64,000 nt of DNA from Candidatus Pacearchaeota archaeon (GTDB taxonomy: Archaea > Nanobdellota > Nanobdellia > Pacearchaeales > GW2011-AR1): positions 2,792 to 66,791 of the forward strand of contig JACOYJ010000001.1 in assembly GCA_016181885.1 (NCBI GenBank), read 5' to 3'. The notes beneath the pieces are model-generated. The model had not been told where the DNA came from. It searched no databases and worked only from the letters and a program-made list of their open reading frames with translations. A program made the translations under genes and the position numbers. Below are positions 26,192 through 52,466 of the stretch, in pieces; positions within the stretch are counted from its first letter, which is position 1; every line of letters starts with the position of its first letter.

Positions 26192-26344
26192 ATGAAAGAA
26201 AGGGTCTCGGCAACAATAGATAAAGAAACTTCTAAAATAATTGATGAAATGTTAAAAAAAGGAAATTATAGAAATAAATCCCATGTCATAGAGGACGCTA
26301 TTAAAATATTAAAAGAGGTTAAAAATGGAAAACAAAACAAATAA
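26192..26344 (+). CDS. Ribbon-helix-helix (CopG/Arc-like) protein, 50 aa
   Basis: Own translation: MKERVSATIDKETSKIIDEMLKKGNYRNKSHVIEDAIKILKEVKNGKQNK*. Overlaps the first gene of the pilin-like locus by 20 nt. Confidence 0.6.
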   Translation: MKERVSATIDKETSKIIDEMLKKGNYRNKSHVIEDAIKILKEVKNGKQNK

Positions 26345-27116
26345 GAAATCTCAAATAACTATCTTCGTAATCGCCGGGATATTAATTGTTGCAATAGTTT
26401 TATTGTTCTTTTTCCTTAAATCAAAGGGAGATGAGCCCGAACGGGGAGCGACTTCCCCTGAATCTATCCTTGAAACTTGCCTTAAGCAAGATGTTTATGA
26501 TGCTCTTCAAGTTATTGGAGAACACGGCGGAGATGACAACCCTGAATTAGGTTTATCTTTCAGGTTTGAAAACGAACCTGCTGTAAAGATAGCATACTTG
26601 TGCTACACTTCTAAAGACCGCGAACCATGCACAAACCAAGAGCCCTTGTTATTCTGGAAAGTAGAGAGAGAAATGGAAAGCTATCTAAATGATACTATTA
26701 ATTACTGTGTTGATGCTATGGGAAAAAGTCTTGAAAAAAAAGGGTATGCTGTTGATATAAGATACTTTCGTGGAGATTTTGAAATTGATATTAATGAAAA
26801 CGGAATTGATATAAAGATAAATGCGGATATGACTCTCTCTAAAAACAATCAAAATAAAGTAAAAAAAGGACTTAAAGCTGTATTCAAAACAAAGTTTTAT
26901 GATTTAATTTACACTTCACGAAGGATAATTTATGACGAGAGAGTGAGCTGCAGCTTTGACATAGCCAGTTATGTCGGGAAATATCCTGATTTTTCCATTG
27001 ATAGAGAGATAACATTGTCTCCCGACTTCTCCAAAATTTATACTGTTAAGACTAAAAATTCGCCTGAGATTTTCAGGTTTGCTGTAAGAAGCTGCGTAGA
27101 TCAGCCAGGAGCTTAA
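26325..27116 (+). CDS. Pilin-like (class III signal) protein A1, paralog of 30691..31476
   Basis: N-terminus NKKSQITIFVIAGILIVAIVLLFFFL. Shares YLCYT...C..Q.P and the C-terminal F.FA.RS....PG with A2. Confidence 0.65.
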   Translation: MENKTNKKSQITIFVIAGILIVAIVLLFFFLKSKGDEPERGATSPESILETCLKQDVYDALQVIGEHGGDDNPELGLSFRFENEPAVKIAYLCYTSKDREPCTNQEPLLFWKVEREMESYLNDTINYCVDAMGKSLEKKGYAVDIRYFRGDFEIDINENGIDIKINADMTLSKNNQNKVKKGLKAVFKTKFYDLIYTSRRIIYDERVSCSFDIASYVGKYPDFSIDREITLSPDFSKIYTVKTKNSPEIFRFAVRSCVDQPGA

Positions 27117-27117
27117 A

Positions 27118-30100
27118 ATGAGAAATAAAAATAATTGCAAAATTAATGGAGTGTTAAAGATTTTATTAGTTTTATGGATGTTAATGATTGCTGGAACAAT
27201 CAGCGAGAATATTCATAAAAATTATAAAATGGAAAGCAAAACATTAAATTCTCCACTAAACCAAGCAAATTATAATCCTATATTAAATAAAATAAACATT
27301 ATAATTAATTTTTTATCAATAAGACAAATTTCAGTTGTCAGCGCAGCAGAAGTTTGCTGTGAAAAGGTTTCTGGAGGAGGATGGTGTCTTGATACTGAAG
27401 ATGGATGGTGTTCTCCCGGCTCTCCAAAATCAAGATGCGAGATATATGGACCGAACGGACAGCTAAAGGGAAAATGGAGTGAAAATCCAGGACCAGAATG
27501 CGAGCCTGGTTGTTGTGGTTTGTATGAAAACACAAAATACACGACAAGAAAAGCGTGCGAGATATTATCTGGAGATTTTAAAGATTCTGTGAGTGAAGAA
27601 AACTGCAAATTTTTAACGACAGAATTTGGAGCATGCATAATTCCTGGAGGTTGTATGTGGGCAACAAACGAAAAATGTTATGGGGTTGGAGATTTAGGTG
27701 GAATTGATTTCAAAAAAGGAGTTTATTGTTCTAATGAAGGGTTAGAAACTGAGTATGGATATAACTATGTACCGAACTCATCAAAGTTATGTTATGATGG
27801 AGATGTTTATTGGCAAGATAATAATGCAAACATGGAAGGAATTGCAGAAGATTGCAAAGAAGGAGAGGAGACATGCGATATAAATAGCGTTGGAGAATAC
27901 TATTGCAAAAGCACAAGCTGTGTTTATGAAGGGAAAAAGAGAGTCGATAAAGAAAGCTGGTGCGTGTATGATGCTTATGTTGGAGACAGCAGAGATTATC
28001 CTGGAAGCGAGCATTTCAAATTCTATTGTGATAATGGAGAGGTGAAAGTGGAAACAAATCCGGGAGAGCATAGAAATATGATATGCGCAGAAAATGTTGA
28101 CCCCGTTACCGGAATTTCAACAGCACAGCTAAGAGATAATTTATGGAAAGAATGTTTTTTGATAGACAATGCTGCTGAATGCAACAACCATCCTGATTGT
28201 CGTTTGCATAGCGTTTATGTCGATACTTACTTTAAGTTTGATGCGTGTGTTCCAAAATATCCTCCAGGGTTTGATATTTATTCTGAAAAACCTCAAGAGA
28301 ACGGAGAAGCTATATGCGGGTTGGCTAACATTGATTGTCTTCAAGTGTGGGATGATGACAGCACCAGTGATAACGACCTTGAAGCAAACGGAAGATGTGA
28401 TGACCCTAGCTATTATTTGCTGCAAATGCATAGTTTTTGCGCTTCTTTAGGAGATTGCGGAAGCTCATTTAACTATAAAGGAAATTATACTTATAGCAAT
28501 AAAGAAGGCTCATGGAGCGCGCTTTATTTTGCGGAAAGGGTGTGTAATGATATTGTGCGTGAATATGAGGCAAGAAGCGGAAATGGGATAACATCAGATT
28601 GGAGCACTACACTGCCAGATTTGAATATTAAAATACCAGGTCGGAATGTAATAATACCTAGTTCTGGTTTAAATACAAACATATTTGATTTAGATAAAAG
28701 AAATTATAATGCCTGCCTTGGCTTTTTAGCTGACTTTGAAAAGAGCAAAGATAAATTTAGTGTTACTGGAGGAGTTTATCCTGAGTGGATTAGAAATGCT
28801 CAAAGAAGAAGTGATGGAGATATAACATCAATTGAACTTATAAACAGCTTGATAGCAGGACGGGGAGAGGCTGTAGGAAATAAGTATTGGGAAGACCAAG
28901 GGATAAGTGATGGCGCGGCGGGAGCACCGGATATTTATTATGAGCCTTATTCATTCACTTGCGCTCCGTCGAGACCTCCTGTTGGAGGAGGTGAGTGTTA
29001 CAAGTGCAATGACAATCCTCTAATAAAATGCACTAATTATAGATGTAATAGTTTAGGAGGAGCCTGCGAGATTTTGGGAGAGACAAAAGACACTGATAAT
29101 CCTCTTTGTGTAGATAGATTTGGCTATAGAACTGACCTTATTCCTCCGCAAATATCTTTTGGAACAATATCGCCTGATTATAGAGTAACTCCTGGAGCGG
29201 ACGGAGTTTCTATTTCTCTTGCAGATGGAACATGCTCTGAAAAATACAGCAATGTTTCATTTACTCTTAATACAGACGAGAATGCAAAATGCTACACTTC
29301 AGAAGACAAATCAACACTTTTAGAAAATTTGGAAGATGGGCATGATTACAACACAACTCATTTTATTGAAAAAAACTTGGGAATCGATAATAAATTAAGA
29401 TTATTCACTATATGCCAGGATGTAAACGGAAATCCAAATACTAAAGAGTATATTGTAGACATATGCGTAAGCCCGCAGCCTGACCATAAAGCTCCAGAAA
29501 TAAGAAGATTTATTCCTGAAAGCGGAAGCTATTTACCTTTTGGAGAGACAAAAAGAATTGTAACTTTAAAAATAAATGAGCCTGCAGTATGCAGATATGC
29601 TAAGACTCCTTATGTGCCTATTGAAAGCATGAGCTATTTATGTGAAACTGATGACGAAGGAATTGGGCCTTACTCCTGCACAGCAGAAATTGAAGATTTG
29701 ACAAGTCCTCAAAACGACATTTATATAAGATGCAATGATACTCTTGGAAATTTCCATCAATCAGATATACTTTACACATTATTCCAAACAAGAGAAGCAT
29801 TAAAAATAGAGATAGTATCGCCTCTAAGCGGCAGTATAAGAGAAACTCCAATCAGCGCAAGTAATCCTTTGATATTAGAAGTAAAAACTTCAAAAGGAGC
29901 TTATAATGGCGATTCTATATGCAGTTACAAATTCTTAGAACAGGGATGGGGAGCAGAATTTTTTGAGACTGGTTTAAAAAAACATAGGCAGGAATTTAGC
30001 ACCGGAGCGCTTGTAAATGGCTATTACAATATTAAAGTGAAATGTGAAGATGCAGCCGGCAATAAAGCAGAGACCATAGTAAGCTTCTCAATCAATATAG

Positions 30101-30663
30101 ATAAAGAACCTCCAGTTATAATCAACAAAAGTGTTTCCGGAACAACTATGACTTTGGCTACAGACGAACCTGCCGAATGTGTTTATAATACAACATCATG
30201 CAATTATTTATTTAGAGATGCTTTAAAAAACGATATCAGCTACGGAAGAACGACAACTCATAAAATATATGACTTCAGCAAGAGAATCGATTACTATGTT
30301 AGATGCATGGATGAATTCGGCAATGAGGATTGCACTGCTATATGGGCAACTGAAAAGAATGATGGACTGCCTCCTGAAGCTGTGAGGGTATTTTATGACA
30401 GTGATGAAACTGGAGACTTAAAATTAATAACTGATGAAGATGCGCAGTGCAGATACAAAACTTCAACCTGCAGTTTTAACTTTGAGGAAGGCCAAGAAAT
30501 GAGCAGAGGGTATTCTCAAAACAGCGAATATTCCAGAGAACATTATGCTCCTTGGAATTTAAACACCAAATACCACATTAAATGCAAAGACAGCTGGGGC
30601 AATGTTAACACGGGATGCTTAATAATTGTTGAACCAATTAAAATAGCAGAGATAGAAGGATAA
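27118..30663 (+). CDS. Giant Cys-rich secreted protein B1 (1181 aa)
   Basis: N-terminal hydrophobic anchor. The N-terminal half is homologous to 32102..33676 and the C-terminal half to the C-terminal part of 34392..36638. Contains five repeats of about 100 aa. Confidence 0.75.
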   Translation: MRNKNNCKINGVLKILLVLWMLMIAGTISENIHKNYKMESKTLNSPLNQANYNPILNKINIIINFLSIRQISVVSAAEVCCEKVSGGGWCLDTEDGWCSPGSPKSRCEIYGPNGQLKGKWSENPGPECEPGCCGLYENTKYTTRKACEILSGDFKDSVSEENCKFLTTEFGACIIPGGCMWATNEKCYGVGDLGGIDFKKGVYCSNEGLETEYGYNYVPNSSKLCYDGDVYWQDNNANMEGIAEDCKEGEETCDINSVGEYYCKSTSCVYEGKKRVDKESWCVYDAYVGDSRDYPGSEHFKFYCDNGEVKVETNPGEHRNMICAENVDPVTGISTAQLRDNLWKECFLIDNAAECNNHPDCRLHSVYVDTYFKFDACVPKYPPGFDIYSEKPQENGEAICGLANIDCLQVWDDDSTSDNDLEANGRCDDPSYYLLQMHSFCASLGDCGSSFNYKGNYTYSNKEGSWSALYFAERVCNDIVREYEARSGNGITSDWSTTLPDLNIKIPGRNVIIPSSGLNTNIFDLDKRNYNACLGFLADFEKSKDKFSVTGGVYPEWIRNAQRRSDGDITSIELINSLIAGRGEAVGNKYWEDQGISDGAAGAPDIYYEPYSFTCAPSRPPVGGGECYKCNDNPLIKCTNYRCNSLGGACEILGETKDTDNPLCVDRFGYRTDLIPPQISFGTISPDYRVTPGADGVSISLADGTCSEKYSNVSFTLNTDENAKCYTSEDKSTLLENLEDGHDYNTTHFIEKNLGIDNKLRLFTICQDVNGNPNTKEYIVDICVSPQPDHKAPEIRRFIPESGSYLPFGETKRIVTLKINEPAVCRYAKTPYVPIESMSYLCETDDEGIGPYSCTAEIEDLTSPQNDIYIRCNDTLGNFHQSDILYTLFQTREALKIEIVSPLSGSIRETPISASNPLILEVKTSKGAYNGDSICSYKFLEQGWGAEFFETGLKKHRQEFSTGALVNGYYNIKVKCEDAAGNKAETIVSFSINIDKEPPVIINKSVSGTTMTLATDEPAECVYNTTSCNYLFRDALKNDISYGRTTTHKIYDFSKRIDYYVRCMDEFGNEDCTAIWATEKNDGLPPEAVRVFYDSDETGDLKLITDEDAQCRYKTSTCSFNFEEGQEMSRGYSQNSEYSREHYAPWNLNTKYHIKCKDSWGNVNTGCLIIVEPIKIAEIEG

Positions 30664-30690
30664 TTTATAAAATAATATAACGTTATAAAA

Positions 30691-31476
30691 ATGGTGAAAA
30701 AAATGGGTGAAAAAATCTCGCAAAGAGGGCAAGTCACATTATTTATAATCTTGGCTATAATAATAATTGCGCTTGGCTTATTAATTTACTTTTTATTTCC
30801 AAAAATAAAAACAAGCCTTGGATTTCAGGAAGAAAGCCCTTACCAATATTTAGAAGGATGCCTTGACAAAAATTATCTGCAGGACAAAATAAATGAAATT
30901 TCTCTGCAAGGCGGCTCTTTGAACCCCGAACATTATTTAGTTTATAATGGAAAAAATTTAGAGTATCTATGCTACACGAATAAATATTATGAGTCTTGCA
31001 TTGTTCAGCAGCCTTTCCTAAAGAGACATGTTGAAACTGAAATAGAAAATATTATCAGAGAAAATGCGAATGATTGTTTTGCTCAATTGGAAAATGAATA
31101 TAAAGACAAGGGATACGAAACGAGCTCGCGAAAAGGCGGGGTTGAAGTTGAATTGCTGCCAAAAAGGATTATATTCAAATTCAACAGCACATTGACTATT
31201 TCTAAGGACGGAAACTCTGAAAATTTCAATTTATTTAGAGTAGTTTTGAACAATAATCTTTATGAATTAGTTGCGATTGCTAGCAGCATAGTGGAGGGAG
31301 AAACTCTCTTCGGAGATATTGAAACAACTTATTACATGAGCTTATATCCAGAATTAAAAGTTGAGAAAAAAATTCAGACAGACGGCTCGACAGTTTACAT
31401 ATTAACTGACAGAAACACTGAAAATAAATTCCAGTTCGCATCTAGAAGCATGGCGTGGCCTCCCGGGTATGGATAA
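30691..31476 (+). CDS. Pilin-like (class III signal) protein A2
   Basis: N-terminus ISQRGQVTLFIILAIIIIALGLLIYFLF; paralog of A1. Confidence 0.65.
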   Translation: MVKKMGEKISQRGQVTLFIILAIIIIALGLLIYFLFPKIKTSLGFQEESPYQYLEGCLDKNYLQDKINEISLQGGSLNPEHYLVYNGKNLEYLCYTNKYYESCIVQQPFLKRHVETEIENIIRENANDCFAQLENEYKDKGYETSSRKGGVEVELLPKRIIFKFNSTLTISKDGNSENFNLFRVVLNNNLYELVAIASSIVEGETLFGDIETTYYMSLYPELKVEKKIQTDGSTVYILTDRNTENKFQFASRSMAWPPGYG

Positions 31477-31813
31477 GATGAAAAATATAATTCATAAAAT
31501 AAAAGAATCTTTTAATGAAAGAAATAGAGGTGGAACTCAGATGATAATATTATTATCAGCAACTGTTTTGTTTGTTGGAACACAAGTGTATGGCATGGTT
31601 TCTGCTCCAAATATAAAAGTTGCTCGTGAATTTGATTATTGCGGTAAAAAGGCTAAGATAATTGTCGAAGAAAGAAAACTGATTTATAATAGCGGATATG
31701 TTTTATTAAATGACAATGATGTAGTTAGAGGCACTTTAATAAGTGACAATGGTGATACAATAACCACGAGTATTGATGGATACACAATTAACGGTGAGCT
31801 TAAAAGATGGTAA
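31469..31813 (+). CDS. Hypothetical small protein with an N-terminal hydrophobic helix (possibly pilin-like)
   Basis: NRGGTQMIILLSATVLFVGTQVYG; overlaps both neighbouring genes. Confidence 0.45.
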   Translation: MDKMKNIIHKIKESFNERNRGGTQMIILLSATVLFVGTQVYGMVSAPNIKVAREFDYCGKKAKIIVEERKLIYNSGYVLLNDNDVVRGTLISDNGDTITTSIDGYTINGELKRW

Positions 31814-32115
31814 TTAAAAATAAAAATTTGGACTCAAAGACAATAATAAGGAAAATAGAAGAAAATAAAAAATCTCTCCAGAAATGGGGGGTTAAAAAGA
31901 TTGGCCTATTTGGCTCTTTTTTAAATGGAAAACCCACTAAAAGAAGCGACATAGACGTTTTGATCGTCTTAGAAAAGCCTGGCTTTGATAATTACATAGA
32001 GCTTAAACTCATGTTAGAGAGAATGTTCAAAAGAAAGATAGACCTTGTTATAGAAGAAGATTTAAGACCTGAATTAAAATACGTGAGAAAAGAGGCGAAA
32101 TATGCGAGATTATAA
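31807..32115 (+). CDS. Minimal nucleotidyltransferase (MNT-type, type VII antitoxin-like)
   Basis: GLFGSFLNGKPTKRSDIDVLIV is a GS..RG....SD.D motif. No HEPN partner is adjacent. Confidence 0.7.
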   Translation: MVIKNKNLDSKTIIRKIEENKKSLQKWGVKKIGLFGSFLNGKPTKRSDIDVLIVLEKPGFDNYIELKLMLERMFKRKIDLVIEEDLRPELKYVRKEAKYARL

Positions 32116-33676
32116 AATTTATTTAATTTTAGGAATTACAATAATTTTCTTTATTGGAATTCTGCCTTTAATAAATCCAGTCGGCGAGAAGAGATTTTGC
32201 TGCGAGAAAACAACTGAGGGAGCCTGGTGCATGGATGTCAAGGAAGAAAGCCAGTGCGCGACAGGCGCAAACTTAAATGTTCCTGTGCCGACTCCCTGCC
32301 AGGCAACTTCTTACTGCAAACTTGGATGGTGTTATGACAGCCAGCAAGGAACTTGCATGCCTAATGTTCCTCAAAAATTATGCAGCGCAAATCAAGGAAC
32401 CTGGAGTTCTGGAAGCGAGGCTCCCCCGCAATGCTCTTTAGGATGCTGTACTCTCGGAGACCAGGCAGCTTTTGTCACGCAAGTCACTTGCAAGAGAATG
32501 TCTGCTCTTTATGGAATTGAAACTGACTTCAGCACAGAATTTTCTAATGAACTTGAATGCATTGCATCAGTCACTTCTGAGGATAAAGGAGCGTGTGTAT
32601 TTGAAAAAGAATACGAAAAAACATGCCAGTTCTTGACGCAAAGAGAATGCGCGACACTTGGAACAAGCGAACAAAATGTTGAATTTCACAAAGGGATTTT
32701 GTGTTCTGCTGAAGAACTTGGAACAAATTGCGGACCTACAAAAAAAACAACTTGCGTTGAAGGAAAGGATGGAGTTTATTTTGTAGATTCCTGCGGAAAT
32801 GTTGCAAATATTTACGACGCTGATAAAGAGAAAGATAAAGATTATTGGAAAAGAGTTTATGATGCAGATGAAAGCTGCAATCCCGGCTCAAGCAACGCTG
32901 GTTCTGCTAAATGCGGGAATTGCGATTATTATTCGGGAAGCAATTGCAAACCTTATCAAAGAAGCGTTGATGGAGTAAGGCCAAATTTAGGAGAGAATAT
33001 TTGCAGGGATTTGGCCTGTGATTATCAAGGCACGAGATATGACCATGGAGAAACTTGGTGCGTAAGCAATACAAACAAGGGAAAAAATATTCCTGGAAGC
33101 GAGTATTTCAGATTTGTGTGCTATGATTCTGAGATAACTGTTGAACCTTGCGATGCATTCAGGCAAAGCATTTGCGTGGAGGAAAATGACAACGGATTTT
33201 CATATGCAAGATGCTCTGCAAACTTATGGAGAGATTGCATTGCGCAAGATAATCAATTAGATTGTGAGAATACTGACAAAAGAGACTGCAGGTGGATGGC
33301 TCACGACAAAGAGGATAATGGAGATTTAATATTTGCGTGCGTTCCAAAATTCTCTCCGGGATTTGACTTCTGGGGCTCAACAGAAGATGTTGAAACAGTT
33401 TCTGAAGGAGAAGGAATTTGCGCTATATCAAACACTGAATGCGTTTCCACTTTCACTAAAGGCTTGACTGGGGGGAAATGGGAGTGCCAGTCAAATTGCG
33501 GCTGCTGCCTTAATGATGATGAACATGAAGGATGTGATGGAGATGAATGGGCATCTAACAAAGTAAATCTCTGCAATGCTCTTGGAGACTGCGGAAACAA
33601 AATAAATTATATTGGAAATAAAGGATATCCAAACCGAACTGTAATTACTAGGGACGGGAAGGTGACTTCAAAATAA
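32102..33676 (+). CDS. Cys-rich secreted protein B2N (524 aa), homolog of the N-terminal half of B1
   Basis: CCEKTTEGAWC / GSEYFRFVCYD / ACVPKFSPGFD / CNALGDCGNKINY align with CCEKVSGGGWC / GSEHFKFYCDN / ACVPKYPPGFD / CASLGDCGSSFNY of B1. Confidence 0.75.
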   Translation: MRDYKIYLILGITIIFFIGILPLINPVGEKRFCCEKTTEGAWCMDVKEESQCATGANLNVPVPTPCQATSYCKLGWCYDSQQGTCMPNVPQKLCSANQGTWSSGSEAPPQCSLGCCTLGDQAAFVTQVTCKRMSALYGIETDFSTEFSNELECIASVTSEDKGACVFEKEYEKTCQFLTQRECATLGTSEQNVEFHKGILCSAEELGTNCGPTKKTTCVEGKDGVYFVDSCGNVANIYDADKEKDKDYWKRVYDADESCNPGSSNAGSAKCGNCDYYSGSNCKPYQRSVDGVRPNLGENICRDLACDYQGTRYDHGETWCVSNTNKGKNIPGSEYFRFVCYDSEITVEPCDAFRQSICVEENDNGFSYARCSANLWRDCIAQDNQLDCENTDKRDCRWMAHDKEDNGDLIFACVPKFSPGFDFWGSTEDVETVSEGEGICAISNTECVSTFTKGLTGGKWECQSNCGCCLNDDEHEGCDGDEWASNKVNLCNALGDCGNKINYIGNKGYPNRTVITRDGKVTSK

Positions 33677-33714
33677 AATGTTAAAACAAATTAATTCAAT
33701 GTTAAGGGAGATGG

Positions 33715-33830
33715 ATAATAATAATAATAATCTTCATGATGGTAAATGCTTAATAAAATTAAATTTTGAGGACGGCGATTCCTCACAAAACTTAAAAGAT
33801 TGGGTATTTTCGCCGTTGATGTAATGAAAG
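33715..33830 (+). repeat. Intergenic repeat family, fragment D (includes an AAT microsatellite)
   Basis: About 75 nt are near-identical (2 mismatches by eye) to the reverse complement of 46251..46330. Weaker similarity continues into the start of the next gene. Confidence 0.85.
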
Positions 33831-34306
33831 CAAAAAAAATTATATTAACTGGACTGGCTGGGTTAATCATTGGATGCGGCATAACAAACAGAGAACTAGT
33901 GCCTGCAATAAATTTTGGAGTTCCAAGGGAAGAAAACTACAAAGCAAGTTTTTTTGTCGGGAAAGAATGGTACGACAGAAATAAAAACAATTCCATGGAC
34001 AAAAGCGACGGGTATTACAATCCTGAAGTTTTCAAAGGAAAAGAACCGATAGTGGTAATTGCGGAGATTGAGGGATACAATGGAAATTTAACGACAAAGA
34101 TATGGAATAGCAAAACAGGAAATGTGGTAAAAACTGCAAGAAGAGAGATTCATGGCAAGACATTGATTCAATATAATTTTACAGCAGAAGACATAATGAA
34201 AAATCAGTTTGGAGGAGATGGTAATTACAATGTTGCATGGTATATTGGAGAGGGTGTTGATAGTGAAAGAATAGAAGAAAGAGGATTTAAAATAAAAAAT
34301 GAATAA
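33824..34306 (+). CDS. Putative lipoprotein (160 aa)
   Basis: MKAKKIILTGLAGLIIGCG has a lipobox-like IIGC. The track start at 33800 is TTG; the ATG is at 33824. Confidence 0.55.
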   Translation: MKAKKIILTGLAGLIIGCGITNRELVPAINFGVPREENYKASFFVGKEWYDRNKNNSMDKSDGYYNPEVFKGKEPIVVIAEIEGYNGNLTTKIWNSKTGNVVKTARREIHGKTLIQYNFTAEDIMKNQFGGDGNYNVAWYIGEGVDSERIEERGFKIKNE

Positions 34307-34391
34307 GAAAAAAATTATTTTAATTTGAGACGGTAGTTCAAGATGTTAGAAAAGTTTGTTCAGAAAATTAGAACAGGGGGGCTGAGATAAA

Positions 34392-36638
34392 ATGGCTAAA
34401 AAATTAAGCTCAATAAAAACGCTTTCAATATTTGAAATATTTATTTTAGTTTTGGGGGTTGTTGCAGTTGGGTATGCTATCGGGAGCAGTATTGGAGAGG
34501 TGAGTGCGCCAAGTCCTAGTGAAACCGATGAAGTTGATGAGATGGGGCAAGGAGCAACTTCTAAGGGAGCGCCGGTAGCAGCTACTGCAGTCGCCGGAGT
34601 ACAAGCAATTGGAAAAAAGGGATTGAACATTATTAAAGAACTAGTTCCTGGCTTGAAAAAGAGATCAGCGGTTGGTGGCTTGAAAACTGTTGTTGGTGAT
34701 GGAATTAAAGAAGGTTTGTTTAAACAAGTAGTTGGATCTGTTTGGCAAGTCGGAGTTAATGCAGTAGTTGCTTACGGTTTTGTTCAGGCTGTAAGATTAT
34801 TTGGACCTCTTATTGGTCTGGATAAATCTACAACTGCTGCTGCAGCAAAAGCTGTAGGATGGGGATATTTTGCTGAAAGAACCTCATTCGATTTATTAGT
34901 CAAAGAAGGAGGCCCAAGATTGTTAGGAAAAAAATTTGCAGAAGTCCTAGGTGGAAAAGTTTTAGGACCAATCACGGGAGCAGGACTAATTGGATTAGGT
35001 CTTGCCGTTGTTATATTCTTATTATCATACAAACGTTCACAAGAGCAAAGAGTCAGCTTTGCGTGTTATCAATGGGATGCGCCAACTGGAGGGGCAAATT
35101 GCGAGAAATGCAACCAGCAAGGATTAATTCCATGCACGCCATATCAATGCAAATCACTTGGACAGGGATGCGAATTTATAGATCAAGGAGATGAATCTTT
35201 ATGCGTTTGGCAAAATAGAAATGACCCCAGGCCTCCGACAATACAGCCTTGGCCTGATGCGCTTCCTAATGCAGATTACAGATATAAGCCAGATACAGCA
35301 ATAAGGCCTCCGGAAAGAGGAGTTTACATAACTTATAATGGCGAGAGAAGAGACGAAAAAGGATGCATTCCGCCTTTCACCAAATTCAGCTTCGGAATAA
35401 CTATTGTCGGCGGCGGAGTAGATAATAAACCAGAGCCGGCGGTTTGCAAGATAGATACAGAAAGAAAACAAGGATTCGATGAAATGATGGACTATTTCGG
35501 GCAAAACTCTAATAAAAGATATAACCATACACAAATGATGAATTTGCCAAGCAAAGAATCTTTGGAAGCTGAAGGATTGACTGTTGTAAATAATGGGGAG
35601 AGTCAATTGTTTGTAAGATGCCAGGATGTTAACGGAAATTTCAACACAGAAAATTTTGTCTTCAAGTATTGCGTCCAGCAAGGCCCGGATTTGATGGCGC
35701 CGGAAATTCTTGGAACAAGCATAGAAAACAACGCTTACATAGGATATAACACCTCTTCAACTCCCCTGACTCTTTACATGAATGAGCCGTCAGAATGCAG
35801 ATGGAATTATGATAGAGACATGAGTTTTGATGAAATGCCTAAAAACATGACGTGCTCTAAAAGTGTTTATGAAATGGGCTCGGATATGACTTATCCTTGT
35901 TCAACAACTCTTGATGGATTAAAGAGCCAGGCAATAAATGCATTTTATTTTAGATGCAAAGACAAGCCATGGACGCCAAAAGAAGGAGAACAAAGAATTG
36001 AGATGTCTCAAGGATACAGGTTCACTTTAATTGGAACCCAGCCTTTAGTAATTACAGATGTTGGACCAACAAGAACTATAAAAGATTCTACTGAAAATGT
36101 TAAAGTAACTTTGACTGCTGAGACTTTTGCTGGAGCAAACCAGGGAGCAGCGCAATGTTTTTACAGCGAATCGTGTTTTGACGAAGCTGGCTCAAAAGAA
36201 CTTTTAACTTCTTTCGCTTATGAAGACGAATTGTACACCGCTCATACTCACTCCCAAGATATAAGGCCTGGAGCTGGAACTTTCAATTGTGTGATCTTAT
36301 GCCAAGACGCCGGGGGAAATTACGACGAGAAAGAATTTAGTTATAGTGTTGAAGTTGATTTCACTGCTCCTGAAGTTGTAAGGGCTTACAAAGATGAGAA
36401 TTCATTAACAATAGTAACTAACGAAAAAGGGGAATGTGTTTACGGAACGCAGGAATGCACTTACTTATACGAAGATGGCTTGTCGATGAGCTCGTTCGAC
36501 GGAACAGACCACCATACTCCATGGAATGCGCAGACAACCTATTATATAAAATGCGCCGATGATTATGGAAACCCGCCATCACCAAATGAATGCTCAATAA
36601 TTGTAAAGCCGTTTGAGCTGTACATCGATGAACAATAA
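34392..36638 (+). CDS. Membrane-anchored Cys-rich protein B2C (748 aa), homolog of the C-terminal half of B1
   Basis: The N-terminal about 220 aa has three hydrophobic segments and is Ala/Gly/Val-rich. From FACYQWDAP.GGANCEKCN onward it aligns with FTCAPSRPPVGGGECYKCN... of B1, including CQDVNGNFNT and YYIKCADDYGN. Confidence 0.75.
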   Translation: MAKKLSSIKTLSIFEIFILVLGVVAVGYAIGSSIGEVSAPSPSETDEVDEMGQGATSKGAPVAATAVAGVQAIGKKGLNIIKELVPGLKKRSAVGGLKTVVGDGIKEGLFKQVVGSVWQVGVNAVVAYGFVQAVRLFGPLIGLDKSTTAAAAKAVGWGYFAERTSFDLLVKEGGPRLLGKKFAEVLGGKVLGPITGAGLIGLGLAVVIFLLSYKRSQEQRVSFACYQWDAPTGGANCEKCNQQGLIPCTPYQCKSLGQGCEFIDQGDESLCVWQNRNDPRPPTIQPWPDALPNADYRYKPDTAIRPPERGVYITYNGERRDEKGCIPPFTKFSFGITIVGGGVDNKPEPAVCKIDTERKQGFDEMMDYFGQNSNKRYNHTQMMNLPSKESLEAEGLTVVNNGESQLFVRCQDVNGNFNTENFVFKYCVQQGPDLMAPEILGTSIENNAYIGYNTSSTPLTLYMNEPSECRWNYDRDMSFDEMPKNMTCSKSVYEMGSDMTYPCSTTLDGLKSQAINAFYFRCKDKPWTPKEGEQRIEMSQGYRFTLIGTQPLVITDVGPTRTIKDSTENVKVTLTAETFAGANQGAAQCFYSESCFDEAGSKELLTSFAYEDELYTAHTHSQDIRPGAGTFNCVILCQDAGGNYDEKEFSYSVEVDFTAPEVVRAYKDENSLTIVTNEKGECVYGTQECTYLYEDGLSMSSFDGTDHHTPWNAQTTYYIKCADDYGNPPSPNECSIIVKPFELYIDEQ

Positions 36639-36648
36639 GATAAAACCG

Positions 36649-36780
36649 ATGCTGATAAATTACATTGTTGGATTTTTATCAATATTCCTTGCGACAATAA
36701 TTTTACTAAATCTTATAATAAACACTGGCAAGCTGATAATAGCTTTTATGGGAATTGTAATATTCGTATATATCTATTGA
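36649..36780 (+). CDS. Possible small hydrophobic protein (43 aa)
   Basis: Own translation: MLINYIVGFLSIFLATIILLNLIINTGKLIIAFMGIVIFVYIY*. Starts 10 nt after the B2C stop. Confidence 0.3.
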   Translation: MLINYIVGFLSIFLATIILLNLIINTGKLIIAFMGIVIFVYIY

Positions 36781-36931
36781 TACGATTTATCAATAATTAT
36801 GAATCATTATTTTTAGAGTAAATAAATTAAGGCATAATATTAGAATAGATCGATAAAGATCAGATAAACAAAAGGGTATTCAAATTAATCCTAATCCATA
36901 TATAACGAGCTTGCGAACATTATTCTGTAAG

Positions 36932-37101
36932 GTAAACCAACAATCTTAACATAAAAAATTACTCACTCATGTCATCGTGCATTTTATTATTAACATTAAT
37001 GGCAAATCTGCGAATGAAATGAGCAGGTAATTATCTTTATTGTTTGTGGGTTATTGAACGAATTTAACCATGGAATGTTGAGTTATGAACCTGGCTTAAC
37101 A
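36932..37101 (+). repeat. Intergenic repeat family, short copy B (about 170 bp)
   Basis: Aligns with 13895..14064 and with both ends of the reverse complement of 45951..46408. Confidence 0.85.
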
Positions 37102-37142
37102 ATTCTCTAAAGTTTTATAAGTTCTGCATCTCTAATTAGTTA

Positions 37143-37637
37143 ATGGAAATAATGGGGCGTAATTCGCAAATGCAGCTATCATTTGGCATGATTTTCTCTA
37201 TAATATTAATTATCTTTTTTCTTGCTTTTGCGTTTTTTGGGATAAAGATTTTTCTGGGGGCGAGCGATAATGCGAGAAATGCGCAGTTTGTCAAAAATCT
37301 GCAGAATGATATTGACGATTTATGGAAATCTCCCCAGGGCTCACAGGAGAAAGTTTATGATGTGTCCTCAAAAATAGAAGAGATATGCTTTATAGAAGAT
37401 GATTATGAAAATATTGTTTTTCTTCCTCCAGAATCAGAGGAACTGCCTCCAATAATTATAAAAAATATAGATATTGGCAACATAACAAGGTCTGGCGGTT
37501 CTGAGATGAAAGATTTTCCTATAGCGGACGATTATCCAAGAATATTAAGGGCTTTGTGCTTTGGCATTGTCGACGAAGAAATAGAACTGATTTTAAGGAA
37601 AGACTTCGGAAAAGATTTGGTGTTGATACAGAAATGA
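37143..37637 (+). CDS. Pilin-like (class III signal) protein, 164 aa
   Basis: GRNSQMQLSFGMIFSIILIIFFLAFAFFG. Confidence 0.6.
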   Translation: MEIMGRNSQMQLSFGMIFSIILIIFFLAFAFFGIKIFLGASDNARNAQFVKNLQNDIDDLWKSPQGSQEKVYDVSSKIEEICFIEDDYENIVFLPPESEELPPIIIKNIDIGNITRSGGSEMKDFPIADDYPRILRALCFGIVDEEIELILRKDFGKDLVLIQK

Positions 37638-37686
37638 AAACTATAAGACGCTCGCTCATTTCATTCACTCGCAAATTTATGCACTT

Positions 37687-37710
37687 AGAAATCGCCTTTG
37701 GCAGATTTCT
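37687..37710. repeat. Hairpin AGAAATC-N10-GATTTCT; second copy at 44463..44486
   Basis: agaaatcgcctttggcagatttct compared with agaaatctgccaacggcgatttct: the stems are the same and the loops are near reverse complements. Confidence 0.7.
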
Positions 37711-37996
37711 TCGCCGATAAAAAATATTAATCAAAAACAATTTATCATATTTTGGGTTTAGTGAAAAAAGAAGTTAACATTAAATCTGCTTAAAAAAATA
37801 ATTTTTCTTTTATCATTTTCTTTAGAGCGAGAAACGTGGCGAGAGCCTGTTTCGAAGCCATCAATCTCGCGAAGCGCATTTTAGGGGGCTGGTAGTCGGA
37901 AAGATGGTGGCGGACTATAATAGAAATCAGAAGTAATAAACGCGTTTTAGGTTAATTTAATAAATCTCCTTAGCTTAATACGAATGGGAGTTTTAT

Positions 37997-38932
37997 ATGG
38001 AAAAAAGAATGGGTTTTATGCAATTGTCTTTCGCTTGGATTTTTGCACTCATAGTTGGAGCCTTCATATTGTTTCTTTCAATTTATATTGCAATAAAGTT
38101 CAGCGGAATTGAGGAAAAAAAACAGGATGTTGTTGTCAGCAAAGAGCTTGGAATTCTGCTGAATCCTCTTGAAAGCGGATTTGAGCAGGCAAGAACGGCA
38201 AAAATTGAACTCCAGAAAAAAACACGAATACAAAATAGATGTGAAAAAGAAGAGCCGTTCGGCAGGCAGGTGATTTCGGTTTCAGAAGAGACATTCGGGA
38301 AGTGGTCAGCTAATGGAAGCGAGGCTGGCTTTTTGAACAAGTATATTTTTTCAGACAAGCTTTTAGAGGGGAATAATTTCTATCTCTTTTCAATGCAATT
38401 TGAGTTTCCCTTCAAAATTGCAGACTTGATTGTGATGACTTCGGCAGATAAGATTTATTGTTTTGTTGACGCTCCTGAAGAAGTGCAGGAAAAAATAAGA
38501 GGGCTGAAATTAGATAATGTTTTAAATAAATCTGCAGGCTCACAATGCCCTCATGGAAGCAAAAAAGTCTGTTTCAGCGGAAATTGCGATATAACCATAA
38601 ATAAGAATCTTGGAAAAGTCACAAAAAGAAACGAAGACTCTGTTGAGTTTTACGGAGATGCTTTAATGTATTCTGCTATTTTCTCCGACAATGAAATTTA
38701 TGAATGCCAGTTTAAGAGACTGATGCAGAGAACAAAACAGCTTGCATCTTTGTATAATCAAAAAGCAACGTTCATAAATAGATATGGATGCTCAACAAAT
38801 CTTCCTCTAGCATCCTTAATAAATCTTGCGGATAATTTTGAAAATTCGCGGGACTTGTCTGGAGCATTGCTTGGAGTTGTTGATGAAATTAAAACAAGAA
38901 ATGAAGAGAATCAGGCGTGCAGGCTATGGTGA
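37997..38932 (+). CDS. Pilin-like (class III signal) protein, 311 aa
   Basis: KRMGFMQLSFAWIFALIVGAFILFLSIYIAI; shares the MQLSF motif with the 37143 gene. Confidence 0.6.
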   Translation: MEKRMGFMQLSFAWIFALIVGAFILFLSIYIAIKFSGIEEKKQDVVVSKELGILLNPLESGFEQARTAKIELQKKTRIQNRCEKEEPFGRQVISVSEETFGKWSANGSEAGFLNKYIFSDKLLEGNNFYLFSMQFEFPFKIADLIVMTSADKIYCFVDAPEEVQEKIRGLKLDNVLNKSAGSQCPHGSKKVCFSGNCDITINKNLGKVTKRNEDSVEFYGDALMYSAIFSDNEIYECQFKRLMQRTKQLASLYNQKATFINRYGCSTNLPLASLINLADNFENSRDLSGALLGVVDEIKTRNEENQACRLW

Positions 38933-38935
38933 AAA

Positions 38936-39295
38936 ATGGCAAATGACAATAAATTAGTTGATGAATATGAAAAACTGCAGAATTTAAAAAATGAATTAGA
39001 TGTAAAAATTGAAGAATTAAAAAAAGAGATTGTTAATCTTGCCAGAGAAAAAAATACTGATATGCTGCTTGGAACCAGCAAAAAATGCTCGATAAGGGAA
39101 TACATTAAAGTAATTTATCCGGAGAACAAAACCAGAATTATAGAGTTAATTAAAGAAAAGGGGCTTTATGAAAAATTTTCTTCAATTAATTATTTTAAAT
39201 TGGGGCCGGCAATAGTTAAAGGAAACATTGATTATGACATACAAAATTTAGTTAGAAAAGAGAAGGCATTTAGGCTTTCTTTACTGGATATTTAA
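38936..39295 (+). CDS. Hypothetical coiled-coil protein (no signal peptide)
   Basis: 119-aa ORF, tightly packed between neighbours. Confidence 0.45.
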   Translation: MANDNKLVDEYEKLQNLKNELDVKIEELKKEIVNLAREKNTDMLLGTSKKCSIREYIKVIYPENKTRIIELIKEKGLYEKFSSINYFKLGPAIVKGNIDYDIQNLVRKEKAFRLSLLDI

Positions 39296-39297
39296 AA

Positions 39298-39717
39298 ATG
39301 AAGATAAAATACGTTTATCATGGGAGTTCAAAAAAATTGAATATTCTAAAAACTAAAAGGGCAAAAGGAGGGATATTAAAAGACAAATTAAATGGAGTTT
39401 ACGCAACACATGAAATGAAAAGCGCGATAATGATGGGCTTATTATCGGGAAAAGGAATTAAAGGGTCAAGTTTTCATGAAACTAATAATAAAATGCATGG
39501 AATAATTTATCGGGGTGGTTTAAAAAATCGTGTTTTTTATGTTTATTTTCTGTCTCCAAAAACTTTCAAGAAGATTGATTCATGGCAGTGGGTTTCAAAG
39601 GAAGAAGTTAAACCTATTAAGGTAAAAAAATTATTTATTAAAGATTATAAAAGTTGGATAAGAAAGGCAACGAAAGAAGAGAAAGAAAGATGGTTAAAAA
39701 AATATGAGAATAAATAA
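39298..39717 (+). CDS. Hypothetical basic protein (no signal peptide)
   Basis: 139-aa ORF, Lys-rich. Confidence 0.45.
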   Translation: MKIKYVYHGSSKKLNILKTKRAKGGILKDKLNGVYATHEMKSAIMMGLLSGKGIKGSSFHETNNKMHGIIYRGGLKNRVFYVYFLSPKTFKKIDSWQWVSKEEVKPIKVKKLFIKDYKSWIRKATKEEKERWLKKYENK

Positions 39718-40231
39718 AATAAGGGGACAAATGAAAATACAGCAGACTGCATTCATGCTTTTAGCTGTGACTTTGTTTTTTGCGCTGGTTGGACTGGCCT
39801 TCGTGAGTTTCCAGCTTTCTGGAATAAAAGAATCAGCTGCAGATTTGGAGGAAAAAAATGCGAGGCTTTTGGTTTCGAAGCTTGCGAATTCTCCCGAGTT
39901 CTCCTGCGGGGAAGCGTTTGGGACAGCTGGAGCTTCCTGCGTGGATTTAGACAAGGTAATGAAATTGAAAGAAAATGAAGCAACTTATTCTGGGTTTTGG
40001 GGTGTTTCTGAAATTAATGTTAGAAAGATTTATCCGAAAATGACTGAAGAGGTTATATGCACGCCTGCCATCTATCCAAATTGCAACTTGATTCAAATAA
40101 GAGCTGGCGGAAGGGGCGGGACTTTTGTTCCAAATTACGTTTCACTTTGCAGGAAAGCTTCTGAAGAAGGAAGACTTTATGATAAATGTGAACTTGGATT
40201 GTTAATGGTTAGTTACGAGGTTAGAAAATGA
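39704..40231 (+). CDS. Pilin-like (class III signal) protein, 175 aa
   Basis: NKIRGQMKIQQTAFMLLAVTLFFALVGLAFVSF. Confidence 0.6.
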   Translation: MRINKIRGQMKIQQTAFMLLAVTLFFALVGLAFVSFQLSGIKESAADLEEKNARLLVSKLANSPEFSCGEAFGTAGASCVDLDKVMKLKENEATYSGFWGVSEINVRKIYPKMTEEVICTPAIYPNCNLIQIRAGGRGGTFVPNYVSLCRKASEEGRLYDKCELGLLMVSYEVRK

Positions 40232-40830
40232 TGAATTTAAAAAATAAACGAAAAAGCTTAACTCGCGCTTGCACTCGTAATATAATGAAAGATTTTGTCT
40301 CGTGCAAACGCTCTACTCGCACCTTCGCTCAGCCAATTCAGCACCTCGTGTCGCGAAAACGCTCGCAGGAAGAGATGGTGGGTTTTGCAATAATAATGGT
40401 TATTGTCTTTGTGATAATACTTGTTTTTCTTGGGTTTTCACTTTCAAATTCTGAAAAAGATGCTGTTGAAAGCTACGAAGCAGAAAGTTTTATGAATTCA
40501 ATGTTATCATATACTACCTATTGCGGCGATTACAGAGAAGTCTACTTAGATGTTAAAGATGTGATATTTCGATGTTATGAAAATCGGACATGTGTTAATG
40601 GGAATGAAAGTTGTGATATTTTAACCACTACATTGAAGGGGCTTCTGTTAGAGAGTTGGAAAGTAGGGGCTAATTCTTCAGTTAAAGGTTATTCTTTAGA
40701 TATAATTGGCGGAGAGGAAGTTTTAGTTACTTTGGAAAGAGGCATTAGAACAAACAACGCAAAAGGAGCTGTCGAGACTATTCCGCAAAGAGGGAAATCT
40801 GTTGAAGTGAGGTTCATAGCTTATTATTAG
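40228..40830 (+). CDS. Pilin-like (class III signal) protein with an unusually long, GC-rich N-terminal leader
   Basis: ...SRKRSQEEMVGFAIIMVIVFVIILVFLGF. The start codon is uncertain (in-frame ATGs at 40228, 40231 and internal MKDF). Confidence 0.55.
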   Translation: MMNLKNKRKSLTRACTRNIMKDFVSCKRSTRTFAQPIQHLVSRKRSQEEMVGFAIIMVIVFVIILVFLGFSLSNSEKDAVESYEAESFMNSMLSYTTYCGDYREVYLDVKDVIFRCYENRTCVNGNESCDILTTTLKGLLLESWKVGANSSVKGYSLDIIGGEEVLVTLERGIRTNNAKGAVETIPQRGKSVEVRFIAYY

Positions 40831-41180
40831 ACCCTAAAGTGGACTGTTATTGTATCTACAACAACTACCGGCCTTAGACGCCTGCGTTTTTTTGTGGATT
40901 CTGGCAGAAACTCGACAAAGCCGAATCTCTCAAGCAGTTTTACATCATCACTTACTGACTTAAAGTTTCTGCCTAATTTCTTGGCCAGTTCATATATGGA
41001 TTTGGGTTTTTCGTACTTTATTATATGGAGGATTCTGGCTTTTTCATTGTTCAAAAGCTGCCTTAAAACGTGAATTCCCTCAAAATCAAAGGATTCTTTA
41101 GATGAAAAGGGGTTTTTAAAAATAGAGAAAGTTCCCTTTGACTCTGTAATTGTTATTTCCCGGGTTTTTGTCCTTGCCAT
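40827..41180 (-). CDS. Winged-helix transcriptional regulator (ArsR/MarR-like)
   Basis: ARILHIIKYEKPKSIYELAKKLGRNFKSVSDDVKLLERFGFVEF is an HTH plus wing. Confidence 0.6.
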   Translation of the reverse strand: MARTKTREITITESKGTFSIFKNPFSSKESFDFEGIHVLRQLLNNEKARILHIIKYEKPKSIYELAKKLGRNFKSVSDDVKLLERFGFVEFLPESTKKRRRLRPVVVVDTITVHFRV

Positions 41181-44571: not shown

Positions 44572-45156
44572 ATGATTCAAAGGATAATCTCGAAGGAAGA
44601 GCAGGAAAAGAGGAAAAGAAAAAATCAGTTTATACTTGGGGGAATTTTGATATTTGTAATGATTGCCAGCACCTTAGGATATAGCTTCAGCAGTTCAGAT
44701 AAGAACAATGTTAACAATGAAAACAGCAACAAAATCAGCTACAATGGATATGAATTTGTAAATCAAAATGGGTTCTGGCAATTGAATCTTGGAGATTTTC
44801 AATTTTCTTTCACGAACAATCCGAATCAAGTTCAAGAGATAAATGCTGTAGTAAATCCGCTAAGCGTGTATTCTGGGAAAGCCCTTTATGTTTCATCCGA
44901 AAATATCCGGGCAGAGTTTGAGCTTAACAGGGTTTTCAATAGCGTTATTTTAAGAAAGCAATATGCGTGCCTTGAAGGAGAGAACTGCAATAACGACTAT
45001 CCTGTAAAAACCTGCGTTGATAATTTTATCATCATAAAAGAAGATGAGGTTGCTAATATAACAAGGCGGGACAACTGCGTTTTTATAAGCGGACCTGAAG
45101 AAAACCTTACAGCCGTCGTAGACGAATTCCTGTTCAAAACTATTGGAGTGAAATAG
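44572..45156 (+). CDS. Hypothetical N-terminally anchored (possibly pilin-like) protein, 194 aa
   Basis: RKRKNQFILGGILIFVMIASTLGYSF; four Cys in the C-terminal half. Confidence 0.5.
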   Translation: MIQRIISKEEQEKRKRKNQFILGGILIFVMIASTLGYSFSSSDKNNVNNENSNKISYNGYEFVNQNGFWQLNLGDFQFSFTNNPNQVQEINAVVNPLSVYSGKALYVSSENIRAEFELNRVFNSVILRKQYACLEGENCNNDYPVKTCVDNFIIIKEDEVANITRRDNCVFISGPEENLTAVVDEFLFKTIGVK

Positions 45157-45205
45157 CATATTTTCCTTCTATAAAATTTATAAACTGAAAAAACGGGAAA
45201 CATTG

Positions 45206-52465: not shown

Positions 52466-52466
52466 T

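Follow-up and report, generated by a model that had tools for sequence, protein, structure and literature searches.

A conserved locus of class III signal proteins and giant Cys-rich proteins as a candidate attachment apparatus of Pacearchaeota and Woesearchaeota

The Pacearchaeota and Woesearchaeota are abundant, uncultured and metabolically minimal archaea, which are thought to be attached to host cells. A locus at positions 26192-40830 of a 64,000-nucleotide stretch of DNA (the window), which comprises nearly the entire 68.8-kb contig of a Candidatus Pacearchaeota metagenome-assembled genome (MAG), raises the question of what is built from its products: six small proteins with prepilin-type N-termini, interleaved with giant Cys-rich secreted proteins. 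A sequence-only reading of the window had proposed a dedicated surface filament or adhesion apparatus, built from components without described homologs and possibly serving cell-cell attachment if the organism were an episymbiotic DPANN-like archaeon. The DPANN origin is confirmed by an identical match of the 1181-aa protein to a protein of Candidatus Pacearchaeota (Table 1). As to function, the present analysis favours, at a probability of roughly 0.55, an operon that encodes a second, lineage-specific set of type IV filament (TFF) substrates together with giant adhesin-like cargo, displayed at the S-layer for attachment.

All genes of the locus are on the plus strand, and every open reading frame (ORF) described in the sequence-only reading was found at its coordinates. 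The genes are tightly packed, most junctions being overlapping or shorter than 30 nt, with the exception of gaps of 123, 85, 504 and 359 nt after positions 33676, 34306, 36638 and 37637, respectively. All-against-all BLASTP comparison resolves the locus into repeated modules, in the order RHH (ribbon-helix-helix protein), A1-B1, A2-[C+D], E, F, G and H, where A1 (263 aa) and A2 (261 aa) are paralogues (30% identity, E 5e-36).

The six small proteins (A1, A2, E, F, G and H, representing five families) each exhibit a basic leader, a predicted processing site and then a hydrophobic helix of about 20 aa, with no Sec-type cleavage site behind it, which is the arrangement of class III signal peptides. 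The families were aligned on their first hydrophobic segment, and distinct N-termini were counted, with orthologues taken from 80 loci. The motif [KR][GAS]Q directly precedes the helix in 131 of 146 N-termini of A, 28 of 40 of E, 22 of 33 of G and 28 of 31 of H, a share of 67-90% in these Q-type families, versus 2 of 267 control ORFs with an N-terminal hydrophobic helix, both of which are genuine small pilins. The N-termini of G that lack the motif mostly read xGQ. Consensus sequences are [KR][GAS]↓Q[ML]KIQQ[MT]AFM for G and [KR][GAS]↓Q[EQ]E[MI]VGF for H, the arrow marking the predicted cleavage site. The F family has a site of its own: [KR][GAS]Q occurs in only 6 of its 35 N-termini, and [KR][GA]↓[FYIL] is used instead, with the consensus [KR][GA]↓[FYIL](L)E(I/F)SFxW[LI]FA among 150 cluster representatives. 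Thus, Gln at +1, which is invariant in a 51-sequence alignment of A2, is common to A, E, G and H, and its place in F is taken by F, Y, I or L. The assignment of all six N-termini to the class III (prepilin-type) signal peptides, with predicted cleavage, is well supported by these counts as far as sequence goes, in agreement with the sequence-only reading. Its two weaker candidates are not retained, as the protein encoded at 31469 has neither orthologues nor the motif, and the family of the protein encoded at 44572 carries K, N or R at -1.

The Epd pilins of Methanococcus maripaludis are processed at RAQI, KGQV, KGQL and KGQI, and their peptidase EppA needs Gln at +1 (PMC4371748); judged by its residues, the site predicted for A, E, G and H is of the same EppA/Epd type. 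The motif is thus identical to experimentally verified sites, it is kept in five unrelated globular families while occurring in 2 of 267 other anchored ORFs, and it is shared by bona fide pilins of the lineage, which are encoded beside T2SSE and T2SSF genes. These observations render it very unlikely that the small proteins are ordinary, uncleaved type II membrane anchors, in which the KGQ motif would be a quirk of the lineage. Such a view could draw on Ser at -1, a residue outside the FlaFind rule, which is present in about 11% of the sequences (27 of 254), mostly those with long leaders. It could also draw on the lack of any pilin family or fold match and on the prepilin peptidase, which was not found in the window or within 10 kb of the operon and machinery loci described below.

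Long leaders (18-47 aa) are found on about 28% of the A, E, G and H precursors, typically as M..KRG(T)..AL(T)....KSKRSQ, and Ser at -1 tracks them (19 long versus 8 short). The long "SKRSQ" variant also occurs on the machinery-linked pilins. Leaders of different families in one genome are 85-95% identical in their DNA, 5' untranslated region included (L069:4388 versus 15989; L034:19396, 20877 and 21498; L074:8674 versus 14575; the L numbers denote loci), and this identity across families points to gene conversion acting on a leader cassette. The leader of H in the window extends over 40228-40365. Short inverted repeats are present in some leaders. An RNA structure in the GC-rich leader of H in the window was considered and rejected, since its folding is no better than that of shuffled sequences (z +1.08) and Rfam gave no match.

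The giant proteins account for the other part of the locus, and their description as extremely Cys-rich holds: Cys makes up 5.0% of B1 (59 residues in 1181 aa), 8.6% of C (45 in 524 aa) and 3.1% of D (748 aa). By BLASTP, C aligns with residues 88-462 of B (29% identity, E 8e-38) and D with residues 612-1069 (28% identity, E 2e-41; B-side match reaching 1176). Judged by these alignments, B is the equivalent of C plus D, and the three giants do not represent separate families. The N-termini of the B family carry a Sec-type signal ending in VSA, ahead of the first CC..G..C motif, and D opens with a B-like signal (IFEIFILVLG...VSA). In B1, the signal is followed by a head rich in Cys and beta structure (about 88-462), a helical linker predicted with low confidence (463-603), a Cys knot and some five immunoglobulin (Ig)-like domains (605-1176), and no central hydrophobic segment is present. 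The AlphaFold model of B1 (predicted local distance difference test, pLDDT, 75.8) displays the head as rich in disulfides and the C-terminal half as consecutive beta-sandwiches, for which Foldseek returned the PTP-delta Ig-Fn region, titin, cadherins and GhpA (probability 1.00, E 2e-13 to 1e-8); Pfam gave weak Big_3_3 and Big_13 matches in B. The D protein is composed of a signal, a variable linker, a Gly-rich hydrophobic hairpin ending at 194-212, a Cys knot and Ig-like domains, and its hairpin is kept in 33 orthologues. This hairpin directly precedes the Cys knot (C..CN.DPL.PC..YRC.SLG..C) in all D proteins and in about two thirds of the fused B proteins, and is lacking in the B1 type. About 45 Cys columns are invariant among 36 orthologues of C, and the heads and linkers of B are variable.

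Read in this way, the first module yields a fully secreted head-plus-stalk protein (B1), and the second a membrane-anchored one, which is split here into C (head) and D (anchor and stalk). B thus combines a signal peptide with tandem beta-sandwiches, the latter according to the model, as in Ig-like repeat adhesins. The approximately five C-terminal beta-sandwiches of B and D recall tandem-Ig adhesins (cadherin-like, Big-domain and the GhpA grappling hook), yet the likeness is at the level of the fold only (9-13% identity), and nothing in them corresponds to the head of about 45 Cys, the Cys knot or the Gly-rich hairpin. Profile searches found no sequence relative of C or D in the PDB, C also lacks a Pfam relative, and no DUF2341, VWA or beta-propeller domain was detected by Pfam in B, C or D. 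Beyond the weak Big-domain matches in B, the core proteins have no Pfam or NCBIfam match, the remaining matches of the locus being confined to the RHH, nucleotidyltransferase and winged helix-turn-helix (wHTH) proteins. The giants, with their head of about 45 Cys and tandem Ig-like stalk, are therefore undescribed families, as had been suspected. The fold and profile comparisons suggested along with that reading were informative for the stalk of B, which is Ig-like, and gave no fold match for A and no PDB relative for C and D. Of the surface or adhesion apparatus proposed there, the surface or adhesion role fits the modelled Ig-like stalks; self-contained assembly is not supported.

The locus is widely conserved. 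In a collection of 5.8 billion proteins, only 47 relatives of the B family were found, all of them without a name and originating from MAGs of Pacearchaeota, Nanoarchaeota or unclassified archaea; when one genome for each GTDB species was scanned with a pattern, 159 B-encoding stretches were obtained, all from MAGs of Pacearchaeota, Woesearchaeota or Nanoarchaeota. ORFs were called in 80 loci and assigned to families by iterated hidden Markov model searches, and the resulting gene order is near-invariant: (RHH)-A-B-A-(C-D or fused B)-E-F-G-H-wHTH(-). This order, whose conservation had been put forward as a check of the sequence-only reading, is kept in about 80 species-level DPANN genomes as well as in metagenome contigs, and precomputed gene calls on independent contigs agree with it and extend it. 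The second module consists of C-D or of a single fused B of 1200-1400 aa, and some loci have three A-B modules. In nearly every locus an A gene is ahead of B, directly 5' of the B-type gene. The operon is flanked upstream by genes for Hjc, MJ0538, two Cys-rich proteins, primase and PCNA, and downstream by an S-layer-like gene. In the distant archaeon L081 the upstream context differs, and the order B-A-B-E-F-G-H-S-layer is kept. No paper on this operon was found in the literature.

The two flanking regulators were recognized as such by Pfam (Table 1). Near-identical RHH orthologues of 44-61 aa precede A in at least 12 loci and in L082, and the RHH protein is likely the regulator of the operon. 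The wHTH gene has the same place in 28 loci, and also in L001, L082 and L083; it had been described as divergent, which is true only with respect to the S-layer-like gene, since it is convergent with H. One B homologue (P0036, L082) is labelled by NCBI as "Candidatus Paceibacterota bacterium", of the candidate phyla radiation (CPR). Its contig exhibits archaeal synteny (Hjc, primase, PCNA, the operon and the S-layer gene), and the label is probably a taxonomic mistake. Two A2 homologues carry the Joint Genome Institute label "cell division protein YceG", which nothing in the analysis backs.

Five genes of the window (31469, 31807, 33800, 38936 and 39298) are not conserved and, judged by their distribution, are insertions outside the core. 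The 114-aa orphan at 31469 has no orthologue in the 80 loci, and both it and the neighbouring nucleotidyltransferase (31807; PF01909, E 1.6e-15) are missing from L001; the 168-aa ORF at 33800 is probably an insertion as well, and the 119-aa and 139-aa ORFs at 38936-39717 have one orthologue each in the 80 loci. An ORF of the 139-aa type is also found at the F/G junction of L050. The two large gaps in the locus, after 36638 and 37637, are without a conserved ORF, and a 55-aa ORF at 36613 was rejected as a conserved small membrane component, the ORF not being conserved. MNT-type nucleotidyltransferase genes (PF01909) are represented by 36 ORFs in 23 of the 80 loci, located between operon core genes at varying points (A/B, A/C, C/D and D/E junctions). 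They are probably parts of toxin-antitoxin systems, and the operon apparently serves as a hot-spot for insertions. Frequent insertion of such genes, together with the variable heads and linkers of B, would be expected if the giants were receptor-binding proteins of an integrated mobile or viral element. This explanation is extremely unlikely in view of the fixed chromosomal place between PCNA/primase and the S-layer gene across about 80 species, the base composition of the operon, which is like that of its surroundings, and the lack of integrase, capsid or terminase matches among the window ORFs searched with Pfam.

Table 1. Features of the operon and its immediate flank in the window (arrows mark predicted cleavage sites)
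Feature	Coordinates	Strand	Basis or remark
RHH (CopG-like) small DNA-binding protein	26192..26344	+	PF01402 E 5.7e-6; first operon gene, overlaps A1
A1, 263-aa class III-signal protein, KKS↓QITIF, partner of B1	26325..27116	+	
B1, 1181-aa secreted giant without membrane anchor	27118..30663	+	100% identical to HYT23_00175
A2, 261-aa class III-signal protein, QRG↓QVTLF, partner of C	30691..31476	+	
Insertion: 114-aa orphan (31469-31813) and 102-aa MNT-type nucleotidyltransferase (31807-32115)	31469..32115	+	
C, 524-aa secreted Cys-rich head; N-terminal half of a B2-type protein, split here	32102..33676	+	
168-aa ORF, not conserved	33800..34306	+	no orthologue in 80 loci, no family match
D, 748-aa membrane-anchored stalk; C-terminal half of a B2-type protein	34392..36638	+	
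E, 164-aa class III-signal protein, RNS↓QMQLSFGMIF	37143..37637	+	
F, 311-aa class III-signal protein, non-Q site RMG↓FMQLSFAWIF; largest of E-H	37997..38932	+	
Insertion: 119-aa ORF and 139-aa ORF	38936..39717	+	no significant family match
G, 175-aa class III-signal protein, IRG↓QMKIQQTAFML	39704..40231	+	
H, 200-aa precursor with 46-aa leader, predicted site KRS↓QEEMVGF, Q codon at 40366	40228..40830	+	
Winged-helix regulator, HVO_A0114 family	40827..41180	-	PF25212 E 1.2e-18
877-aa S-layer-like protein, Sec signal, without C-terminal anchor	41568..44201	+	S_layer_C E 1.4e-4

The prepilin-type signals raise the further question of the machinery that would handle them. As the sequence-only reading had noted, none is encoded in the window, in which Pfam searches on about 40 ORFs and a motif scan yielded no T2SSE, T2SSF or Peptidase_A24 gene. 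Nor is there a complete TFF locus elsewhere around the operon, since T2SSE and T2SSF are absent at 82 of 83 operon loci and Walker-A and GxGD motif scans of 80 operon loci gave no machinery. A self-contained apparatus without known machinery is nevertheless not supported, for the lineage owns a canonical Epd-like type IV filament machinery. In L071, two small canonical pilin genes are located 7 kb upstream of the operon, and one of the pilins (P0168) led to L084, of the same Pacearchaeota genome, where an 11-gene Epd-like cluster (L084:10001-20361) lies 6-16 kb from A-B. Six of its products are class III proteins (pil129, pil155, an 820-aa VWA protein, p305, pil143 and pil156), and the remainder comprises a KaiC-like ATPase, two T2SSF platform proteins, a 585-aa T2SSE ATPase and a 212-aa protein. 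The genes are ordered (pil129, pil156), (p212, T2SSE, T2SSF twice, KaiC-like, pil155, VWA protein, p305, pil143). A query of metagenomes with the ATPase gave 102 relatives of 57-77% identity with the same 11-gene order; the machinery loci beyond L084 are numbered L085-L164, and the cluster is widespread in metagenomes rich in DPANN. Archaeal TFF "system 1" (Epd-like), reported in DPANN by a 2026 preprint, is stated to be marked by two platform genes and one ATPase, and FlaI, FlaJ and FlaK have been reported in Woesearchaeota (PMC8407392).

The connection between the operon and this machinery is drawn by the cleavage site. The machinery-linked pilins have the same [KR][GAS]↓Q site, with Glu at +5 (in pil143, KRGQ followed by AAMEFLMTYGWAIL), and the VWA protein of the machinery cluster has a G↓Y site, comparable to the G↓F or G↓Y of the F family. 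The sharing of the site throughout the lineage is the main argument that a single peptidase, and probably a single machinery, serves both the operon proteins and those of the machinery cluster. There is precedent for such sharing, in that archaeal ATPase/TadC pairs serve several pilin sets (Makarova et al., PMC4858521). Clade-1 loci, moreover, unite at least five minor pilins, large adhesins and S-layer-like genes (Makarova et al. 2016, PMC4858521).

Compared with the Epd pili of M. maripaludis and TFF system 1, the operon is thus similar in its cleavage site, which fits EppA substrates ([KR][GA]↓Q), and in the company of minor-pilin-like proteins, large adhesin-like proteins and a nearby S-layer-like gene, and the machinery cluster of the lineage is similar in its two TadC/T2SSF proteins, one ATPase and Q...E(+5) pilins. 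The operon differs in that its proteins lack the Glu at +5 (A reads QVTIF, E QMxLSF, G QMKIQQ and H QEEMVG) and match no Epd, DUF361/Class_IIIsignal or PilA N-terminal model, and in that its giants have a novel Cys-rich head and Ig-like stalk instead of a DUF2341 or PilY-like domain. By analogy, it would act like the pilin-plus-adhesin part of an Epd-type filament system, while belonging to no described family of pilins, adhesins or S-layer anchors.

Several observations weigh against the coupling of the operon to a filament system. Operon and machinery are unlinked, unlike in system 1, in all loci other than L084 (A-B within 10 kb), and only the signal motif common to both speaks for their functional coupling. 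Peptidase_A24 was not found in the window, within 10 kb on either side of the 83 operon loci or within the same distance of 80 machinery loci, and no EppA homologue was found in the stretches around either; the multi-pass membrane ORFs near the machinery clusters match SpoIIM, rhomboid and MFS in Pfam and include no A24 peptidase. None of the families of the locus matches a Pfam or NCBIfam pilin model, the A proteins of the window included, and Pfam gave no match for 126 orthologues of E-H. The type IV pilin fold was tested on A2, whose model is not pilin-like: the AlphaFold prediction (pLDDT 87.6) contains a helix at 11-35, a low-confidence linker (pLDDT 63-68) and a compact, novel alpha/beta domain, for which Foldseek gave no usable match in PDB or BFVD and no pilin among the matches (TM-scores at most 0.21). 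A2 is also highly conserved for a surface-exposed pilin, with 1330 homologues and 52-60% identity among the best 120 listed (only 25-50% in B), and A may have an enzymatic or chaperone role instead.

What the small proteins might do, if processed, can be narrowed further. Searches of the PDB with profiles of A, E and F gave nothing significant; the best match of E was the type IV pilin PilE1 (E 0.14), within the helix region only. The F family is represented by 944 sequences at 50% clustering (E<=1e-3). Profile-profile comparison connects A, E, F and H with each other and with the machinery-linked pilins, mostly within the N-terminal module, and these links are weak (hhalign probabilities of 96% for E and F and 93% for A and E). 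Descent of the locus families as paralogues of the machinery-linked pilins was rejected, the likeness being limited to that module. The Glu at +5 of the polymerising pilins of the lineage is missing from the locus proteins, and a role in the filament shaft is therefore doubted; nor does the operon encode a candidate major pilin. This argues for A and E-H being prepilin-type substrates that anchor, prime or decorate, not subunits of a filament shaft, and the dedicated filament of the sequence-only reading is accordingly not supported, as the proteins of the locus, with the non-pilin model of A, do not look like filament-forming pilins.

The tip subunits of the FimU-PilVWX-PilY1 priming complex and of the GspH-I-J-K tip lack a conserved Glu at +5, and GspH-I-J-K is a minor pseudopilin set of four members. 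By analogy with these assemblies, the operon may be regarded as combining at least four unequal pilin-like proteins, one of them with an atypical N-terminus and all without the Glu, with a non-pilin protein of about 1100-1200 aa. The differences are that no sequence or fold homology exists, that B has neither a beta-propeller nor a VWA domain (the VWA protein of the lineage is located in the machinery cluster), that each head-bearing giant has a dedicated A protein and that one giant is itself membrane-anchored. The same four-member analogy, with its large member of atypical +1, the missing E+5 and the lack of an anchor in B1 and C, could be extended to a secretion pseudopilus, in which E-F-G-H (and A) would form a piston like that of the type II secretion system (T2SS), by which B1 and C would be exported as effectors through the S-layer. 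This extension is improbable: B, C and D are each equipped with a Sec-type signal, display is favoured over release by the Ig-like stalk and by the membrane anchor of the paralogue D, and, to our knowledge, T2SS-like export is not established in archaea.

A further parallel is provided by the bindosome of Sulfolobus, whose class III-signal substrate-binding proteins have been regarded as a "functionalised TFF" (Sivabalasarma & Albers 2026 preprint). Here too a class III signal is carried by a non-pilin globular part, a flexible linker follows the helix of A, and dependence on a TFF ATPase and platform encoded elsewhere is proposed. Unlike in the bindosome, the globular domains are of no known fold and are not substrate-binding proteins, and they are coupled to giants instead of ABC transporters.

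Taken together, the preferred reading of the operon as a second TFF substrate set would involve the following steps. The leaders would be cut off by a prepilin peptidase encoded elsewhere, and the freed N-terminal helices of E-F-G-H and A would be handled by the Epd-like ATPase/TadC machinery. The processed proteins might then stay in the membrane as bindosome-like anchors, or build a short assembly resembling a priming complex, tip or pseudopilus, in which E-F-G-H would be the counterpart of the minor-pilin set. Each A protein would dock the neighbouring Cys-rich head, and the heads would be held and displayed on their Ig-like stalks, at the S-layer or through it, for attachment to a host cell or surface.

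The constant neighbour of the operon allows for a different role. A large S-layer-like gene follows it in every locus with sufficient flank, the distant L081 included, and the 877-aa protein of the window has a signal peptide and no C-terminal anchor. Its S_layer_C match is below the Pfam cut-off, and the matches in L081 and L082 are not so marked. The operon may thus build membrane anchors or pillars of the S-layer, with D and the class III proteins tethering the anchor-less S-layer protein and the heads associated with the lattice, comparable to SlaB-SlaA of Sulfolobus. The membrane hairpin and long Ig-like stalk of D would be appropriate for such a scaffold, a housekeeping role in the envelope would agree with the strong conservation of A, C and F, and S-layer-like genes are known companions of archaeal type IV pilus (T4P) loci. 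This is the main rival to the preferred reading, and it is considered possible, if somewhat unlikely. Against it, the adjacency may be mere synteny, given that PCNA and primase are equally constant on the other side. Five prepilin-type families with a conserved cleavage site would be needless for anchoring alone, B1 is secreted without an anchor, and there is no likeness to SlaB or known S-layer anchors.

A bolder version of the attachment hypothesis envisages a host-contact organelle, with E-F-G-H as a short stalk driven by the TFF system and the A proteins as dedicated, pilin-like adaptors or chaperones of the disulfide-rich heads, in which the Gly-zipper-like hairpins of B2/D might oligomerise to a ring or pore in the membrane which, with secreted B1, would bridge or breach the host envelope. 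It is regarded as unlikely; if true, it would represent the molecular basis of episymbiotic attachment and exchange of cell contents in DPANN archaea.

Even in its more restrained form, the operon is a strong candidate for the attachment apparatus of Pacearchaeota and Woesearchaeota cells. According to a groundwater study, DPANN genomes are devoid of type IV pilus components, and pili served there to distinguish CPR from DPANN cells; the same study inferred strong host attachment for Pacearchaeota. The Epd-like machinery in Pacearchaeota and Woesearchaeota corrects the statement that DPANN lack T4P components, and the operon proteins are candidates for the strong attachment. At least eight families (A, B/C/D, E, F, G and H) are thereby added to the catalogue of archaeal surface proteins.

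Additional genes for surface proteins surround the operon in the window. In several loci, conservation extends downstream past the S-layer-like gene to two membrane-anchored proteins of 194 and 216 aa (44572-45156 and 45203-45853), the N-termini of which are basic, then hydrophobic, without a small residue at -1, and are thus not class III. Neither the operon proteins nor the S-layer-like protein end in a sorting signal of the PGF-CTERM type. A short membrane protein of the exosortase/archaeosortase kind (PF09721, E 2e-6) adjoins a PAP2 phosphatase (46479-47012, minus strand, and 47061-47678, plus strand). Upstream, on the minus strand, two Cys-rich secreted proteins of 642 and 959 aa (16225-18153 and 19046-21925) have no Pfam match, and each exhibits a signal peptide, many CxxxC-type repeats, a C-terminal transmembrane anchor and a basic or Pro-rich tail; proteins of similar size occur at the same place in L001, L002, L082 and L083. 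The window also codes for a lamin-tail-domain protein (14612-15340), two tandem SPFH/Band-7 paralogues (51440-53558), a homing-endonuclease-like ORF with LAGLIDADG/HNH repeats (57500-58300) and a 763-aa protein that combines PKD with a PD40 beta-propeller (60895-63186).

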